Shown here: one piece after another, positions 56,804-64,000 of the stretch
How positions within the stretch are numbered: the first letter of the stretch is position 1
Layout: each line of letters opens with the position of its first letter
Source of the DNA: a virus
Length of the DNA stretch: 64,000 nt
Strand: one strand, 5' to 3'
Virus record (IMG/VR): IMGVR_UViG_3300017917_001336
Location: 32,001-96,000 of that record
The notes under the pieces: generated by a model
Told to the model about the DNA's origin: nothing
Databases searched by the model: none
What the model saw: only the letters and a program-made list of their open reading frames with translations
Made by a program: the position numbers and the translations under genes

Positions 56804-59569
56804 ATGAAACACGTAAGATTACCGGCGTATGACGCTTACGATTTAGATAGACTAAGCTATTCTAACGGCGAATTAGTAAATGATACAACTAATGCGATTA
56901 TCCGTTATATGGACGGAGAAACCCCTGGCGGCTTTAAAATTGCTACCCAAGACTATGTGCAGGCTAATGCTATTACACAGTCTAACTTAGATTCAGCATT
57001 AACTGTAAAATTACAACCATATGCAAAAACAACAGATTTAGCACCATACGCTCTTACAGTTGATGTAAACAATGCGATTGCTGCTATTCCAGTTTACTCA
57101 TTACCAACTGCATCTACCTCAATTAAAGGTGGTGTTAAGGTTGATGGTACAACGATTCTTATCGATGGTAATGGTGTTATTAGCGGTGCTAATCAATATG
57201 TGTTGCCAACAGCCGGTGTAGGATCAGGTGGAACAAAAGGTGGTGTTAAGGTAGACGGCACAACAATTCTTATTGATGGCAACGGTGTTATCAGTGGTGC
57301 TAACCAATATGTACTTCCTACAGCATCTACTACAGTTAAAGGTGGGGTTATTATACCTGCTGTGGGGACTAGCGGTCTTAACAACTCAGCAGGATCGATT
57401 ACACTAGCTACTGCTAGCACTACACAGTTAGGTGGTGTTAAAGTTGATGGTACAACTATTACTATCAGTAATGGAGTTATCAGCGGTAGTAATCAATACG
57501 TATTACCAACTGCAACAACATCAGTTTTAGGCGGCGTAACTGTTCCTGCAACAGCTAACTCAGGTTTAACAAATACATCAGGTGCAATACGTATTGCAAC
57601 AGCTAGTACAAACCAAATTGGTGGTGTTAAAGTAGACGGTGTTACAATTACTATTAACGGTTCTGGTGTTATTTCTGCTAACATTACAGGTGCAATTATT
57701 TTCCAAGGCGGTTGGGATGCTAGTCTTAACAGTCCAACCCTAAACAACTCTAGTGGTGCATTTAACGTAAACGGTTATGAATTTGTTACAACTGTAGCTG
57801 GTACAGTAAACTTTGGTGCAGGTAACGTAACATTTGCTGTTGGTGATAACGTAATTTATGATGGTACTAAATGGGTTAAAGTTCCTATTGGTTCAAGTGC
57901 TGGACAAACTAATAGTATATTAACAGTTAACAACTCAGGCACAGGTGATGCAAGTGGTACAACTTTTAATGGTTCTTCTCCTATAACAATCAGTTACAAC
58001 TCAGTAGGAGCAAGTCCGTTAGCTGGAAGTAGTAGTTTAACAACTGTAGGCACAATAACATCTGGTACATGGAGCGGCAATATTATTAGCCCAACTTACG
58101 GCGGTACTGGGATTAACAATGGCTCTTATACATTAACAATTACAGGCGCCAACAGAACATTAGATCAAAACGTATCGTCAGGTTCTAGCCCATCATTTGA
58201 CGGAACAAACTTTTCTGGAACTGCATCAAGTTTATCAGTAGGGTCAGCTTCAAATGCAACATCAGCAACATCAGCAGGTAAGTCAACAAACATTGCTGGT
58301 GGTACTGCTAATAGAATTCCTTATCAAACTGCTGCAGATACAACAAGTTTTATTGCTGCACCTGCAGACGGTACATTCCTTAATTATACTACAGCAGGTG
58401 GACTAGCATGGACTAGTACAATAGCGGCTACTACTGCAACAAACGTAAGTGGTGGTGCAGCCAACAGAATTGTATATCAAACAGGTGCTAGTACTACAGG
58501 ATTTATAGCTGCGCCAGCAAGTACCAACACATACTTACAATGGAACGGAACAGCGTTTGTGTTTGCCGCAGTTTCTGGTGCAACTGGTGGTACAGTAACA
58601 TCTGTTAGTGGTACTGGTACAGTTAGCGGTATAACATTATCAGGTACTGTAACATCTACTGGTAACTTAACATTAGGCGGCTCTTTAAGTTTAGTAAGCC
58701 CTCCTGCAATTGGTTCAACAACACCAAACACCGGTGCATTTACTATCCTTACAGTTAACTCAGCTTCAACTTCAGCAGTTACACTAAGCCCAACAGGAAC
58801 TGGTACAGTAACTATAAACCCAACAACTGCTGGTACAATTAATAACATGAGTATTGGTGCTACAACAGCATCAACTGGACGCTTTACAACAATTACGTCA
58901 ACTGTTACTACTGGTACTGCTCCATTTACTGTTGCTTCAAGCACTAACGTGGCTAACTTAAATGCTAGTTCGTTAAACGGTGCAACTTTTGCAAGCCCCG
59001 GACAAATCGGTTCAGTTACTGCATCGTCAGGAAGATTTACTACTATTGAATCAACAGTAACAACAGGTACTGCACCATTTACAGTAGCGTCTACAACTAA
59101 CGTGGTCAACTTAAACGCTAGTTCACTGAATGGTGCAACGTTTGCAAGTCCAGGATCAATTGGTAGTAGCGTAGCAGGCAGTGGTGCATTTACTACTGTA
59201 ACTGCTACAACAAGCGTTAAGGCCAGTGGTAGTGGTGGTGTTGGTTATAACACAGGTGCTGCCGCAGGTGGTACTGTAACACAGTTAGTTTCACGTACAA
59301 CAGGTGTTACCCTTAACAAAATTACTGGACAAATTACTTTGTTTACAGCAGCTGGTGATAACACTCAATGGTTAACATTTACAGTTACTAATAGTACTGT
59401 AGTCGCAACTGACGTTGTTATTGTTACTGGAGATACTGCTACTAACAAATATATTGCCAACGTGTCTAATGTAACTGCAGGATCGTTTGATATTACTTAC
59501 TTCTCTTTTGGTACAGCTATTGATGCACCAACATTTAACTTTGCTGTAATCAAAGGATCAAATAACTAA
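56804..59569 (+). CDS. Repetitive fibre-like structural protein
   Basis: Repeats YVLPTA.T...GGVKVDGTTI.I..NGVISGA and STVTTGTAPFTVAS.TNV.NLNASSLNGATFASPG; TAAATA at 56771. Confidence 0.75.
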   Translation: MKHVRLPAYDAYDLDRLSYSNGELVNDTTNAIIRYMDGETPGGFKIATQDYVQANAITQSNLDSALTVKLQPYAKTTDLAPYALTVDVNNAIAAIPVYSLPTASTSIKGGVKVDGTTILIDGNGVISGANQYVLPTAGVGSGGTKGGVKVDGTTILIDGNGVISGANQYVLPTASTTVKGGVIIPAVGTSGLNNSAGSITLATASTTQLGGVKVDGTTITISNGVISGSNQYVLPTATTSVLGGVTVPATANSGLTNTSGAIRIATASTNQIGGVKVDGVTITINGSGVISANITGAIIFQGGWDASLNSPTLNNSSGAFNVNGYEFVTTVAGTVNFGAGNVTFAVGDNVIYDGTKWVKVPIGSSAGQTNSILTVNNSGTGDASGTTFNGSSPITISYNSVGASPLAGSSSLTTVGTITSGTWSGNIISPTYGGTGINNGSYTLTITGANRTLDQNVSSGSSPSFDGTNFSGTASSLSVGSASNATSATSAGKSTNIAGGTANRIPYQTAADTTSFIAAPADGTFLNYTTAGGLAWTSTIAATTATNVSGGAANRIVYQTGASTTGFIAAPASTNTYLQWNGTAFVFAAVSGATGGTVTSVSGTGTVSGITLSGTVTSTGNLTLGGSLSLVSPPAIGSTTPNTGAFTILTVNSASTSAVTLSPTGTGTVTINPTTAGTINNMSIGATTASTGRFTTITSTVTTGTAPFTVASSTNVANLNASSLNGATFASPGQIGSVTASSGRFTTIESTVTTGTAPFTVASTTNVVNLNASSLNGATFASPGSIGSSVAGSGAFTTVTATTSVKASGSGGVGYNTGAAAGGTVTQLVSRTTGVTLNKITGQITLFTAAGDNTQWLTFTVTNSTVVATDVVIVTGDTATNKYIANVSNVTAGSFDITYFSFGTAIDAPTFNFAVIKGSNN

Positions 59570-61569
59570 ACGCCAGCTAACTTACGCACACGAGTTAGCT
59601 CTGCGCTTTCTTTAAATCCGTCTATAGTATTTGATGCACTTGCCGGGGTATTAAAGTTTTGTGTTGGCGATTGCGGAGGAGTAGTTCCGTATGCATGGTC
59701 TACTAGCATGTCAATAAACTGTTCAACAGTATTGCCAAATGCCTTGTTAGCCGCCACTGCAGCCGCAAAACCTGTACCAGCACCGATGATAGCCGCCGGA
59801 ATAACACCTATAACAGTTGGACTGGCCACAGTACCTGCCAAGGCCGCGCCAAATATAGCAGCCACAATCTCAAGACCAAAACGTGCAATAGGTTGTGCAA
59901 TAATCTTAGTAACTTCAGCACGATACTGATCCTGTGTCATCTTCTTAGGATCAAGTGCTTGATACTTGGCAACAGCATCGCTTACTTCAACGTAAATTGA
60001 ATAACCTAACAACAACCAACCACCTGCTTTAAATGCAGCACCAGTAGCGGCTTTGGCATTTGTTACAGCAGTCTTAGGTGCTTGTGCTACTTTAGCGGCA
60101 AACTCATCAGCGGCTAAATCTAAACGTGTGGTGCCAATTTTAACCGAGTTCCAAGTATTTGGTAATAAACTTTTTTGAATACTGTCTTGTGGAATGCCTG
60201 TTAAGAATGCACGGAATCGAGCACTCCAAGATGCTTTACCAGCGGCACTGGATAAATCAACTGGACTGGTTTGTTGTTGGCTAACAAACTTAACAGCTTT
60301 GTTAAACAGTTTACGAAACTCTGGATCTTTAAGTGCAGAACTAAGTGCTTCCTTTTGAAACTCGGGCGCACTAGTTTTTAAACTACTACGCAAAAAATTT
60401 CTAAATTCTTTGTCCGCTACTTCACCATTGGGAAATGACTTGGGCATTTTGTTAGGGTCAACAAACTCAGCAGTAATGTTTTGATCCAAGAAGCTTTTTT
60501 CAATCATAGCAACAATTTGCTCGTTAGACATCTTGGGTTTAACATCCCGGGCCATTTGTTCCACGGCTTGTTGTAATCGTGAGTTAAGTTCTACAGGGTC
60601 ACGCCAATAAGCATCACCATGATAGTCTGTGGGTATCTTAGGATTAGCTGGCGCCGCACCGGTCTTTAAACGATCACGTAACACAGCCATTTCTTGACGA
60701 TGTGCTGTTAGTCGTTCGCTAGCTGACTTAATAGCAGCTTGATCACCACTGCGAGTAGCGGCAGTTAGTGTTTTTTGTAATTCAGGTTCTTGTTTGACTA
60801 ATTCAGCTAAACGATCGCGATTTTCTACAGCTTGTCGTAAAAATGAGTTAGGAATAGTCTTAGGATCAGTACCCGGAGGAATAGCATCTAGTTGGGCCTT
60901 AAACTTAGCACGGTCGGCGTTTGCATTAACTCGACGCTGTGTGTCAGCCATGCTCATACCTTGTAGTGCGTTATAATGGTGATTTAATTCGTGAGCAATA
61001 GTAGAACGCATACCCTTTAAATCACTAGTAACACGATTGGTAACCCAAAGTCTGTTTGCACGTGGCCCCGGAGAATTAATATTCATGTTGCCCGTGATAG
61101 TTTCTGTGGGTATGTTAATTTGTAGTTTATGCCCTTGCTTTTCTAACCAACTAGCCATGCGGGGATCTTGGCGGAAATCACCCATGCTTGGGCGAGCATT
61201 AGCCTTGTCTGATCGGGCCAAGTCCCAGGGATCAGCAACCTTTGGATTATACTGATAGCCCGTCTTAGGATCAGCAAACCATGTACTAGCACTAGCACGG
61301 GGCATGTCAATAGTATATCCCCCATCGGGTAACTGTTTAAACTTAGCCATGGGCTCAAAGTTAACTTGCCCAGACTGCGCTAATATCTGAACTTGTGGAC
61401 TTTTAAAATCTGCAGGATTAATACCCATGTCTGTTAAATTAACACGAGACCCGTCTTTGACTTTACCGGGGTTGGCATTTAAGTAGTCAATGATCTTTTG
61501 ACTAATTAGTGATAGTTCCTGTTGTGCAACAGCATCTTCTTGTACTAATTGAATATATTCGCGGAGCAT
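59566..61569 (-). CDS. Zincin-motif protein with C-terminal hydrophobic helices, probable internal/ejected virion protein
   Basis: STIAHELNHHYN (HExxH), later YWRDPVELNSR; hydrophobic G/A-rich helices; ends ELTRVRKLAGV; TAAATA 5 nt above the ATG. Confidence 0.6.
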   Translation of the reverse strand: MLREYIQLVQEDAVAQQELSLISQKIIDYLNANPGKVKDGSRVNLTDMGINPADFKSPQVQILAQSGQVNFEPMAKFKQLPDGGYTIDMPRASASTWFADPKTGYQYNPKVADPWDLARSDKANARPSMGDFRQDPRMASWLEKQGHKLQINIPTETITGNMNINSPGPRANRLWVTNRVTSDLKGMRSTIAHELNHHYNALQGMSMADTQRRVNANADRAKFKAQLDAIPPGTDPKTIPNSFLRQAVENRDRLAELVKQEPELQKTLTAATRSGDQAAIKSASERLTAHRQEMAVLRDRLKTGAAPANPKIPTDYHGDAYWRDPVELNSRLQQAVEQMARDVKPKMSNEQIVAMIEKSFLDQNITAEFVDPNKMPKSFPNGEVADKEFRNFLRSSLKTSAPEFQKEALSSALKDPEFRKLFNKAVKFVSQQQTSPVDLSSAAGKASWSARFRAFLTGIPQDSIQKSLLPNTWNSVKIGTTRLDLAADEFAAKVAQAPKTAVTNAKAATGAAFKAGGWLLLGYSIYVEVSDAVAKYQALDPKKMTQDQYRAEVTKIIAQPIARFGLEIVAAIFGAALAGTVASPTVIGVIPAAIIGAGTGFAAAVAANKAFGNTVEQFIDMLVDHAYGTTPPQSPTQNFNTPASASNTIDGFKESAELTRVRKLAGV

Positions 61570-61583
61570 GATAGTATTTACCG

Positions 61584-61648
61584 CGCGAAGCGGCAGCGCA
61601 GATTTTAAGAAGCGCGAAGCGTTAGCGCAAAAAAATAACCGCGAAGCG
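61584..61648. repeat. Three CGCGAAGCG mini-hairpin repeats
   Basis: Copies at 61584-61592, 61613-61621 and 61640-61648 in a GC-rich intergenic island. Confidence 0.9.
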
Positions 61649-61701
61649 GCAACGGTAAACGCGATACCGAGCGTTCTGTTGGCTGTGCCATAAATAATTA
61701 T

Positions 61702-62133
61702 ATGTTAAACATGACTGCAATCAACGGTTTCCGCAGCATCTTAGCTGACACTTGCACCCGCCATGGTTGGCAAGCACCCGAAACTGTACTAGACTACTCT
61801 GTTAAGATTCTAGCTGACAAGCTGGATAAAAATCCATGGCAACCTGAGCCTAGCTACGCAGAACGCTATATGACCCTTAAAAGCATCACAGAAGCTATAG
61901 AATTGGGCAATACTTGTTGGTTCACTAGGGCTGTATTTCCAGAGCTAATGCAGCGTAGAGGTTTAAGCAGCCGTTACTTTGTAGATATGGGTCAAGGATG
62001 CTATAGTATGGTTCTTAAGCATAATCCGCACCCAGCTATATCTATACTAAACAAACACTTTGAGTTTACAGCTGAAATAGCATATACAGCAGTACGCCAC
62101 TTTAACAGTCAGCGTGAAATGTGGGATTTATAA
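61702..62133 (+). CDS. Hypothetical protein
   Basis: 143 aa, TAAATA 5 nt above the ATG. Confidence 0.7.
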   Translation: MLNMTAINGFRSILADTCTRHGWQAPETVLDYSVKILADKLDKNPWQPEPSYAERYMTLKSITEAIELGNTCWFTRAVFPELMQRRGLSSRYFVDMGQGCYSMVLKHNPHPAISILNKHFEFTAEIAYTAVRHFNSQREMWDL

Positions 62134-62340
62134 GGGCAAACCTGTAGCTAAGTCTAGTGCGGGATCTACATGTTCTACACTAGAACCAAAACGTATAATA
62201 AACTCTGTTAGTAACGGACCTTCTGGGATCCAAAAACGTGTACGATTTAAGTGCATTTCACTGGCTATACTATGACTCTTGATATAGTTGATAACGTGTA
62301 CAAAGTTTGGATTTTGGGTTAGAATATAATAGTGTCTCAT
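62128..62340 (-). CDS. Hypothetical protein
   Basis: 70 aa, EMHLNRTRFWIP. Confidence 0.65.
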   Translation of the reverse strand: MRHYYILTQNPNFVHVINYIKSHSIASEMHLNRTRFWIPEGPLLTEFIIRFGSSVEHVDPALDLATGLPL

Positions 62341-62468
62341 GCTAGAATATTTACTTGTGTGCCCTTGGGACGAGTATTATTATAGAGCCACATGTGATAA
62401 CGATGTAGTGTATTGTAGCTAGTACGATTAGGCGGGGATTGTTTTAAGTATTGAGCAGTTGTCCACAT
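62337..62468 (-). CDS. Small protein (43 aa), not in the ORF track
   Basis: AGGAGCGAA RBS then ATG; MWTTAQYLKQSPPNRTSYNTLHRYHMWLYNNTRPKGTQVNILA; ATGA overlap with the 62340 gene; TAAATA at 62491-62496 (minus). Confidence 0.6.
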   Translation of the reverse strand: MWTTAQYLKQSPPNRTSYNTLHRYHMWLYNNTRPKGTQVNILA

Positions 62469-62722
62469 AGTTTCGCTCCTTGTGACAACGTATTTAATGA
62501 TATTTGACTATTGCCCAGAATGGGTCCTGCAGGATAAAAAAATAGCCGCGCAAAAAATTATAGGGAAGTACTTACAGATTCATGATGGTGATTTTGAGTC
62601 TATATGGGGTGTTTTTTTAGGTTGCGCTGTTGCAAAAATGCCACACATTTTATATTATATACCCCGACCCCCCATAAACCGAACCGAGCCCCACCGACCA
62701 CCGAGAGGCCGAACCTGAGACC

Positions 62723-62860
62723 AAAAAAAACCCCTAGGATACCGGGAGCGAATCGGGTTTATACCTAGGGGCACTACAAAGGCCGTTGCCTCGTTGGCGT
62801 CGACCGCTGACAGCTTACCGGGAGCGAATCGTTGGGCTGTCTACTACAGTATGCACTACA
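62723..62860 (-). ncRNA. Candidate three-hairpin sRNA / structured 3' UTR ending in a rho-independent terminator
   Basis: Stems GACAGC/GCTGTC and CCCCTAGG/CCTAGGGG each enclose the same 16-mer CGATTCGCTCCCGGTA; last stem is followed by T8. Confidence 0.6.
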
Positions 62861-62864
62861 GCTC

Positions 62865-63770
62865 TTAGCGGCTGTTACGCATACACGTTACTTCTACTAC
62901 GCTACGCCAGTTGCTGGGCATACTAACACGAATGTCCGCAACCTTAAGCACCATACGCAGGCTTAGCTCTCGCATACGCTCTGCATTGTTATTAATGTAG
63001 TCTACTACTTCTTGCTTGTCCTCATCAGTTAGCTTGTAGTCATCGAGCATACCGCACTCGTTAACTACCTGCTTGATACGCAACAGCTTCTCACGGGTAG
63101 TATCAATAGTCAGATCCAAATAGTGACAACGTGACTCCAATGCTTCCAAGTGATCGCGCAGCTTCTTTGACTTAACGTGATCGAACTTGATGTTGCTAAT
63201 AAAGATAGCACCACCGTGGAAGTCGAAACTGTTGGGCACACCTTCTTGTCTAAGCAAACGGCTGTCCGTGTTCCAATGGATAGTACGCTTCTTACCTGAG
63301 TCTAGCGCAGCCTTTAGGATGTTCAAGCTAAGGTCATCTAGCAGTACAGAGTCGCAGTCATCAAACACTAGGATGCATTTACGATCGCTGAACTCGTAGA
63401 GCTTTTTGTACAAGCCAATGGCACTCATTGCGCCCTTGACTACTTCGTATTTCTTCAGCTTGGTATCGTTGGCTACATTAGCAAACACATCATGCTTGCC
63501 CAGTACCCGTTCTACACCAAAGCTCTTACCAACACCCGGAGGGCCAGTTACGATCATAGCACGAACATCACCCTTCTTTACAGCACGGGTCATGTCTTCT
63601 AGAATCTGAAAACGTTGGCCCAAACGTTCCATAATACTTTCATCGGACTCGGCTTTGAGCTGGCGCTCTTTTTCTTTAATATAGTCCTTGTCCTGCTCCA
63701 AGCTGGCTGTAGTGCCTGCTGAGCTCTTTTTACCTTTGGGCATGTCTGCTAGTGTCATTACTTTTGCCAT
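62865..63770 (-). CDS. AAA+/P-loop ATPase
   Basis: IVTGPPGVGKS Walker A, ILVFDDCD Walker B, LNILKAALD, IFISN, ALESR. Confidence 0.85.
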   Translation of the reverse strand: MAKVMTLADMPKGKKSSAGTTASLEQDKDYIKEKERQLKAESDESIMERLGQRFQILEDMTRAVKKGDVRAMIVTGPPGVGKSFGVERVLGKHDVFANVANDTKLKKYEVVKGAMSAIGLYKKLYEFSDRKCILVFDDCDSVLLDDLSLNILKAALDSGKKRTIHWNTDSRLLRQEGVPNSFDFHGGAIFISNIKFDHVKSKKLRDHLEALESRCHYLDLTIDTTREKLLRIKQVVNECGMLDDYKLTDEDKQEVVDYINNNAERMRELSLRMVLKVADIRVSMPSNWRSVVEVTCMRNSR

Positions 63771-63799
63771 GTGTGTTCGCTCCTTTATTTAAAACATCT

Positions 63800-63828
63800 A
63801 GTATACTATCGAATGCAGTCTTGGTCAA
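63800..63828 (-). promoter_or_regulatory. Strong sigma70-type (early) promoter
   Basis: TTGACC-17nt-TATACT on the minus strand, followed by AAAGGAGCGAA RBS. Confidence 0.8.
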
Positions 63829-63983
63829 CTCTTTTGAAACACGCTTTGCACATAGCACTCGGAGCCATATTGGGCTTCTACTAGTGCTCGAGCCTGTTGC
63901 GGATGGTTGGCCTGAACCACTTGGGTAATGTTTCTCAGTTGGGTGTCGCCACCCACTGAGAATGTAACTTCATACATGTTCAT
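63825..63983 (-). CDS. Small hypothetical protein (52 aa), not in the ORF track
   Basis: MNMYEVTFSVGGDTQLRNITQVVQANHPQQARALVEAQYGSECYVQSVFQKS; TAATG coupling with an upstream stop. Confidence 0.6.
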   Translation of the reverse strand: MNMYEVTFSVGGDTQLRNITQVVQANHPQQARALVEAQYGSECYVQSVFQKS

Positions 63984-64000
63984 TAGTCGAGCCTCGAACC

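Follow-up and report, generated by a model that had tools for sequence, protein, structure and literature searches.

A candidate multi-loop anti-Shine-Dalgarno RNA behind an ATPase gene of uncultured giant phages, with loops complementary to a private tag on early ribosome-binding sites

What is known of temporal control in large virulent phages concerns mainly proteins, such as sigma factors, anti-sigma factors and RegA/RegB. In the Firmicutes, the small RNAs (sRNAs) RsaE/RoxS and those of the RNAIII type carry C-rich hairpin-loop motifs that pair with the Shine-Dalgarno sequences (SDs) of several mRNAs. Phages P1 and P7 encode the c4 RNA, which derives from the transcript of its own target; its two exposed loops pair with sites that cover ribosome-binding sites (RBSs), and related phages show matched changes in loop and target. 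The c4 antisense RNA family (RF01695) is listed in PMC2864571. The cuckoo or CcsR sRNAs of the Alphaproteobacteria consist of 2-4 adjacent hairpins with variable stems that share a C/U-rich, anti-SD-like loop motif (PMC4615179; PMC8034643), namely CCUCCUCCC (PMC4615179), and are located in the untranslated 3' region (3' UTR) of a DUF1127 gene (PMC8034643). In icaR of Staphylococcus aureus, a UCCCCUG motif in the 3' UTR pairs with the SD of the same mRNA, where it blocks initiation and creates an RNase III site (PMC3868564). Finally, the RegB protein of T4 inactivates early mRNAs at GGAG SDs with a 3' extension (GGAGRAYARAA) and helps to end the early period (PMC3014915). Here we analyze a 64,000-nt stretch (the window, bases 32001-96000 of the 147,567-bp IMG/VR record IMGVR_UViG_3300017917_001336), in which an AAA+ ATPase gene is followed by tandem hairpins whose loops are complementary to an RBS sequence, hereafter the tag, that is concentrated on early genes. 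We put at roughly 65% the probability that these hairpins form a 3'-UTR multi-loop anti-SD RNA that would pair with this private immediate-early tag, probably shutting off translation.

Of the systems above, cuckoo/CcsR is the closest in architecture and likely the same in biogenesis, and its adjacent hairpins with variable stems are found here as well. Its loop motif is not: the loops are CCUCCUCCC there, whereas in the phages they are AUUCGCUCC or (U)GCCCUC. The cuckoo RNAs are also chromosomal, lie behind a DUF1127 gene and belong to stress responses, whereas the present element lies behind an AAA+ ATPase gene (PHROG 1250) of a giant myovirus. To our knowledge, cuckoo/CcsR has no private SD tag on a defined regulon and no co-change of tag and loop. 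By analogy, c4 appears to be the phage RNA nearest in logic. The likeness is one of mechanism only, in that the loops and the RBS sites that they complement share an operon, and that loop and target differ in a matched way from one related phage to another. While c4 lies upstream of one target operon (icd-ant) and acts in the immunity of temperate phages, the present element would belong to a 3' UTR in a giant myovirus of the virulent type and matches ~15 separate early cassettes; the RF01695 model gave no match within window positions 61000-64000 (E ≤ 10) or in five related loci (E ≤ 1). With icaR the element shares the placing of an SD and its 3'-UTR complement on one mRNA, since the ATPase mRNA would hold both tag and loops, but icaR has one motif for one mRNA, whereas the phage element has 2-4 loops and its tag is common to a temporal class. 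The Firmicutes sRNAs are directed at ordinary G-rich host SDs rather than at a private tag, and are not phage-encoded. T4 RegB may be seen as a functional analogue, its targets being early SDs with a class-typical extension, but RegB, which acts together with ribosomal protein S1, is a protein nuclease, whereas the proposed reader of the phage tag is an RNA loop. The anti-SD hairpin-loop sRNA is a kind already known; the private tag on a temporal gene class is the new aspect. In the literature we found no description of such a phage element, or of a regulon-wide anti-SD RNA in a virulent phage.

The features of the locus, in window coordinates, are as follows.

62472-62479, minus strand: tagged SD GGAGCGAA of a 43-aa open reading frame (ORF; 62337-62468, ATG at 62468)
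62723-62730, minus strand: U8 tail of an intrinsic terminator, the predicted 3' end of the RNA
62731-62771, minus strand: hairpin 2, the terminator stem CCCCUAGG/CCUAGGGG, from sequence and fold
62781-62805, minus strand: middle GC hairpin GGUCG..CGGCC with loop CGCCAACGAGGCAA, present only in some relatives
62809-62841, minus strand: hairpin 1, stem GACAGC/GCUGUC, from sequence and fold
62865-63770, minus strand: AAA+ ATPase gene, 301 aa, PHROG 1250, followed by the element as its predicted 3' UTR
63776-63783, minus strand: tagged SD GGAGCGAA of the ATPase gene, 5 nt ahead of the ATG at 63770
63800-63828, minus strand: sigma-70-type promoter of the ATPase cassette, TTGACC-17-TATACT, with 10/12 consensus matches, among the consensus-type early promoters of the minus-strand block

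The element covers ~140 nt from the ATPase stop codon to the U8 run (62723-62864, minus strand). The 16-mer CGAUUCGCUCCCGGUA is present in two minus-strand copies, the sole ones in the entire record, and the minus-strand sites of the 16-mer CGATTCGCTCCCGGTA are 62740-62755 and 62816-62831, both with 0 mismatches; no further match to CGATTCGCTCCCGGTA at ≤3 mismatches exists in the window (0.11 expected by chance). Each of the two motif hairpins is preceded by UGUAGU. In the minimum free energy (MFE) fold, both expose AUUCGCUCC as an apical loop of 9 nt on a short closing helix, CG or CCG. In hairpin 1 this loop (62821-62829) sits on inner CG/CG pairs above an internal loop CCAA/UAA, and in hairpin 2 (62745-62753) on an inner stem CCG/CGG. 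The latter hairpin has the form of an intrinsic terminator, a GC-rich stem followed by a U run on the transcribed strand, and the U run past this last hairpin is found on the ATPase strand only, the opposite strand being without one. A simple terminator scanner misses hairpin 2 because its loop limit is 8 nt. In the window, the stretch that separates hairpin 1 from the ATPase stop codon has no sigma-70-like promoter. An earlier note, made by a model from the sequence alone, had reported the twin 16-mers at exactly these minus-strand positions, with two different stems, the UGUAGU leaders, the U8 run and a GC hairpin between them, and both sequence and fold bear out this description in full.

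Rfam searches of 61000-64000 (E ≤ 10) gave no family at the element; in the five related loci (E ≤ 1) there was likewise none, and only upstream tRNAs were matched. In several relatives (L010, L047, L227 and L245), the early region has 2-3 clustered tRNA genes upstream of the ATPase. A tRNA or tmRNA origin of the UUCG-containing loop was considered and rejected: ARAGORN finds no tRNA or tmRNA gene in the window, and the loop has 9 nt versus the 7 nt of a T-loop. The loop of the middle hairpin recurs as CGCCAACAAGGCAA in a subset of the relatives and is missing from others; this loop region resembles, and does not complement, the A-rich early leader (..AACAAGG..). Past the U8 terminator, a non-coding block of ~170 nt (62500-62720, minus strand) is conserved in 48 relatives. 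It holds G-rich GGTCGG repeats, a GTATATA box and a hairpin TGTTG..CAACAGCGC, plus AAAATCACC, AAGTACTTCTTTATAATTTTTTGCGCG and AGGACCCATTTGGG, and has no Rfam match; it may act as a promoter of some other class, encode a second non-coding RNA or serve as an origin.

The complement of the loop, GGAGCGAA, occurs four times in the window versus 0.79 expected, a count reached in 0 of 100 shuffles. Two of the copies are the loops, on the reverse strand, and the other two are the RBSs of the ATPase gene and the 43-aa ORF, both of which the earlier note had identified as complements of the loop core. The cassette of the 43-aa ORF is not kept at the corresponding place in relatives. The window terminates inside a minus-strand block of short genes (genome 91.6-107.5 kb), here called the early block, and the tag is abundant in this block: the minus strand of genome 94.4-105.2 kb contains ten copies of GGAGCGAA and sixteen of its hexamer GGAGCG. 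Each copy precedes an ATG, by 1-5 nt for the octamer and 3-7 nt for the hexamer, and a TATAAT or TATACT box lies ahead of most of these sites. By a crude gene call of the whole record, GGAGCG is at the RBS of 14 of 26 early-block genes versus 1 of 137 others (Fisher p = 2e-12), and outside the block GGAG is mostly followed by A. On its own strand, the early block has 11 perfect and 4 near-perfect (11/12) TTGACA-17-TATAAT promoters. On these grounds we take the tagged genes to be immediate-early cassettes that the host RNA polymerase reads. The tag is placed on the promoter-proximal gene of each cassette, and downstream operon genes use other SDs. When the 187 translation-initiation regions of the record were ranked by their predicted duplex with the loop, early-block genes made up 15 of the top 19.

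The same association extends to related genomes. From the genome of the window and 60 related loci, we drew 227 distinct GGAGCG sites on the tagged strand. An ATG lies 3-7 nt downstream in 210, and a -10 box precedes 201 of these 210, at a distance that is most often 20-21 nt. In relatives of 345 and 356 kb, GGAGCGAA is clustered on one strand beside the ATPase, versus 0-2 hits for controls read backward. Counting the tag at gene starts across the genome was among the checks that the earlier note had called for, and its observation that other RBSs lack the CGAA extension agrees with the 1/137 count. Its extended tag stands only in part: GGAGCG is constant, but the next two bases are AA in just 68% of tags. 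One lone loop motif in the opposite orientation (CGGGAGCGAATCG) was seen in the 356-kb relative (L084:300-370; G001:C1:278900-278970), 40 nt ahead of a normal GGAGCGAA-ATG RBS and distant from the ATPase locus.

In each of the 60 loci whose ATPase reaches 67% identity or more, UUCGCUCC occurs 0-100 nt past the ATPase stop codon, in 53 of them in two or more copies, and GGAGCGAA recurs upstream on the same strand. The number of motif hairpins per element is two in the window, 1-3 in relatives of the same clade (clade 1) and 2-4 in a sister clade described below. The 92 distinct hairpin instances have widely differing stems, and in 69 of them no base of the 8-nt core is paired in the MFE fold. 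For hairpins of the hairpin-1 type, an ungapped alignment of 24 distinct homologues has 98.1% paired cells, versus 24-37% with slid partners. Compensatory changes are present in 7/7 outer pairs, and 0 of 500 shuffles reach the covariation score. Among 35 distinct homologues of the terminator type, the long stem is different in every one. The helix that closes the loop also switches, between CCG/CGG, GUG/CAC, CUG/CAG and GCG/CGC around an invariant G-AUUCGCUCC-C. RNAalifold recovers only 3 invariant inner pairs from 30 terminator-type hairpins, because the outer stems, which single-sequence folds do show, begin at different offsets in the sequence alignment. As in the window, T7-T9 runs come after the last hairpin in relatives, and on the ATPase strand alone. 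When viral contigs were scanned for an exact 14-mer, single matches were numerous, near chance level by rough estimate; only the twin matches belong to the element family, so the scan gave no measure of its size. In some relatives the ATPase stop codon lies inside the first loop motif (TGAttcgctcc; TAGccctc), and the element would therefore be transcribed with the ATPase gene.

A change of tag and loop together is seen in the sister clade, which was seeded by loci L065-L071 and widened with 78 further loci. Here the early RBS tag is GAGGGC(A/U)A, behind the same kind of promoter, and directly past the ATPase stop codon there are 2-4 hairpins that show (U)GCCCUC, the first of which often overlaps the stop (TAGccctc). 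At least 4 of the 6 bases of GCCCUC are unpaired in 93/93 distinct sister-clade hairpins, and the stems are highly varied. The loci were sorted by the loops behind their ATPase:

CGCUCC loops only: 60 loci, with 252 GGAGCG RBSs and 1 GAGGGC RBS
GCCCUC loops: 65 loci, with 14 GGAGCG RBSs and 307 GAGGGC RBSs
Neither loop: 32 loci, with 8 GGAGCG RBSs and 8 GAGGGC RBSs

The association between loop type and RBS tag has p = 6e-145. A CGCUCC hexamer is also present in 15 of the 65 GCCCUC loci, inside a longer sequence beside the stop codon. Some more distant loci with the ATPase (L064, L068, L072-L083 and L263-L280) have neither the tag nor loops behind it, and there the next gene is often directly adjoining. 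No third tag/loop pair was found among the distant ATPase-bearing loci examined. In the lineage of L072 and L073, many short genes in a row share a conserved leader, cATAAaCAaAGGAGCA; the next gene lies directly behind the ATPase there, and the 6.8 kb examined showed no loop element.

The predicted energies follow the same division. Cognate loop:tag duplexes have -13.9 and -14.2 kcal/mol, whereas the crossed pairs have -5.5 and -6.1, and the loop on the other RBSs of the phage has -6.0 kcal/mol. The 16S rRNA tail, taken as the canonical one, pairs with GGAGCGAA at -7.9 kcal/mol, and at about -8 with either tag. That the tag serves as a better partner for the 16S tail was also considered and set aside, since -7.9 kcal/mol for GGAGCGAA is no gain over plain GGAG sites. 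That two lineages with different tags each have loops complementary to their private RBS tag speaks for a pairing of loop and tag. That the element works at the level of RNA is suggested by its single orientation, the apical position of the motif, the stems that are kept paired while free in sequence, and the one-way terminator. The earlier note had also ventured that an RNA derived from the 3' UTR, or a looping of the mRNA from 5' to 3', acts on the tagged early genes; enrichment, conservation and co-change in relatives, with an invariant loop on covarying stems, lend support to this at the level of sequence comparison.

In the mechanism that we propose, the element would be the 3' end of an immediate-early transcript and fold into tandem hairpins. 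The loop AUUCGCUCC would then pair with GGAGCG(AA) on the promoter-proximal gene of ~14-16 immediate-early cassettes, the ATPase included. Since the loop:tag duplex is stronger than 16S pairing and fails on other RBSs, a block of the 30S subunit would be expected on early mRNAs only. A 3' fragment that is rich in hairpins and ends in a terminator may outlast the bodies of the mRNAs and accumulate as a discrete RNA. Once accumulated, it could occlude the SDs in trans, and the result would be a delayed, RNA-based shut-off of immediate-early translation.

Several points weigh against an anti-SD RNA of this kind. Complementarity extends over only 6-8 nt, of which GGAGCG alone is constant, and the whole 156-nt region folds barely better than its shuffles (z = -1.64). 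Only two tag/loop states were found, so the independent co-change events are few. A single 3' UTR would need to titrate the mRNAs of ~15 consensus promoters. Recombination could keep the early promoter-leader-RBS cassettes similar, in which case the loops would follow the leader of the ATPase alone. No cultured relative was found above 46% ATPase identity by protein search. Finally, GGAGCG is at the ATPase RBS in 37/39 distinct relatives, a count that would also suit an action purely in cis, in which the 3'-UTR loops pair with the SD of their own mRNA and tune the ATPase alone, the other tags being copied early leader cassettes. The element is always directly behind the ATPase gene, the placing of the first motif over the stop codon in some relatives would couple loop availability to ATPase translation, and icaR, with its 3'-UTR UCCCCUG motif on its own SD, is a precedent (PMC3868564). 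However, the tag is kept on 210 distinct RBS contexts with varying flanking leader bases, the whole regulon, beyond the ATPase, has moved to GAGGGC in the sister clade, and 2-4 loops per RNA exceed the need of one SD. We regard control of the ATPase alone as unlikely, though looping in cis may be an alternative or an added mode.

More improbable still is that the loops are sites for a protein, such as a phage RNA-binding regulator, a processing enzyme or a termination factor, and that their complementarity to the RBS has no pairing function. Identical loops repeated on variable stems are the design of the protein sponges CsrB and RsmZ, which the element recalls, and the invariant stretch, e.g. 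CCAACGAUUCGCUCCCGGYAA in hairpins of type 1, is longer than the 8 pairable nt; a protein site gives, however, no reason for an exact complement of the tag in two clades whose crossed pairs mismatch. The chance is slimmer again for an element of DNA, with GGAGCGAA as a duplex protein site (e.g. for an early-gene repressor ~20 nt past the -10 box), of which two more would lie behind the ATPase gene, or with single-stranded DNA hairpins as at an origin. A protein site on DNA was what the earlier note would have fallen back on. The rather fixed distance of the tag from the -10 box, most often 20-21 nt, and the conserved non-coding block with G-rich repeats behind the terminator would fit this, but the promoter-side copies have one orientation and stand at SD distance from an ATG in 210/227 sites. 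Moreover, the reverse orientation is confined to the apical loops of co-varying hairpins, which a duplex-DNA site would not need, and the last hairpin has the form of an intrinsic terminator in one direction only, that of the transcribed strand. Very unlikely after the comparative data, and the least probable of all, is that there is only a terminator here and that the match to the RBS is a by-product, whether a remnant of inverted RBS cassettes or chance. Hairpin 2 with its U8 run is a plausible intrinsic terminator, and the z of -1.64 for the whole region is only slightly better than shuffles. On the other hand, hairpin 1 is no terminator, 60 loci keep the loop unchanged on stems that have been replaced, the loop of the sister clade differs yet matches its own tag, and the 16-mer pair had a chance expectation of 0.11.

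As to the source of the DNA, CheckV gives the IMG/VR record a completeness of 40%. Near-complete relatives have 345-356 kb, and the record can therefore be taken as a fragment of an uncultured giant phage. The window codes for a myovirus tail sheath, a T4-type large terminase, tail fibres and a DnaB-like helicase. As a DNA query against 50,697 phage records, the region gave zero matches. By protein search, homologues of the ATPase were found in 80 viral contigs at 54-84% identity, and the closest cultured one is gp126 of PA5oct (46% identity). PA5oct was rejected as a model because its next gene follows 43 nt past the ATPase and the element is absent. NCBIfam and PDB sequence searches assigned no function to the ATPase. 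At the end of the minus-strand block, a 667-aa ORF (59566-61569, minus strand) has no Pfam or PHROG match. A further oddity lies outside the window, in the early island at G000:C1:102034-103305 (L003:11034-12305), where 1,272 nt of the plus strand run without GA or GG; elsewhere in the record no such run exceeds 156 nt. The minus-strand mRNAs of 3-4 early genes would therefore be without UC or CC, and one idea is that this reflects avoidance of a YC-specific nuclease or deaminase.

If the reading of a multi-loop anti-SD RNA is true, more than 120 contigs in two clades of giant aquatic phages mark their immediate-early mRNAs with a private RBS tag. A small multi-loop RNA made from the end of such an early transcript would read the tag and act as a compact translational switch that times itself. 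It would also be the first anti-SD RNA of regulon-wide range to be described for a virulent phage. A bolder extension, to which we give a little less than even odds, is that a multi-headed anti-SD RNA of this kind serves as the master off-switch of the whole immediate-early regulon in a giant phage family, as an RNA counterpart of T4 RegB. On this view the tag/loop pairs have become orthogonal between the lineages, so that the RNA, once accumulated, could also act against a superinfecting phage that bears the same tag by silencing its early genes, an RNA-based superinfection exclusion comparable to the heteroimmunity of P1 and P7 through c4. The two clades would represent natural orthogonal tag/loop sets (about -14 vs -6 kcal/mol), which might be put to use as mutually orthogonal repressors of translation. 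The signature seen here, one loop sequence repeated on differing stems and complementary to an RBS word that is over-represented, further provides a way to search for more RNAs of this kind in uncultured phages.

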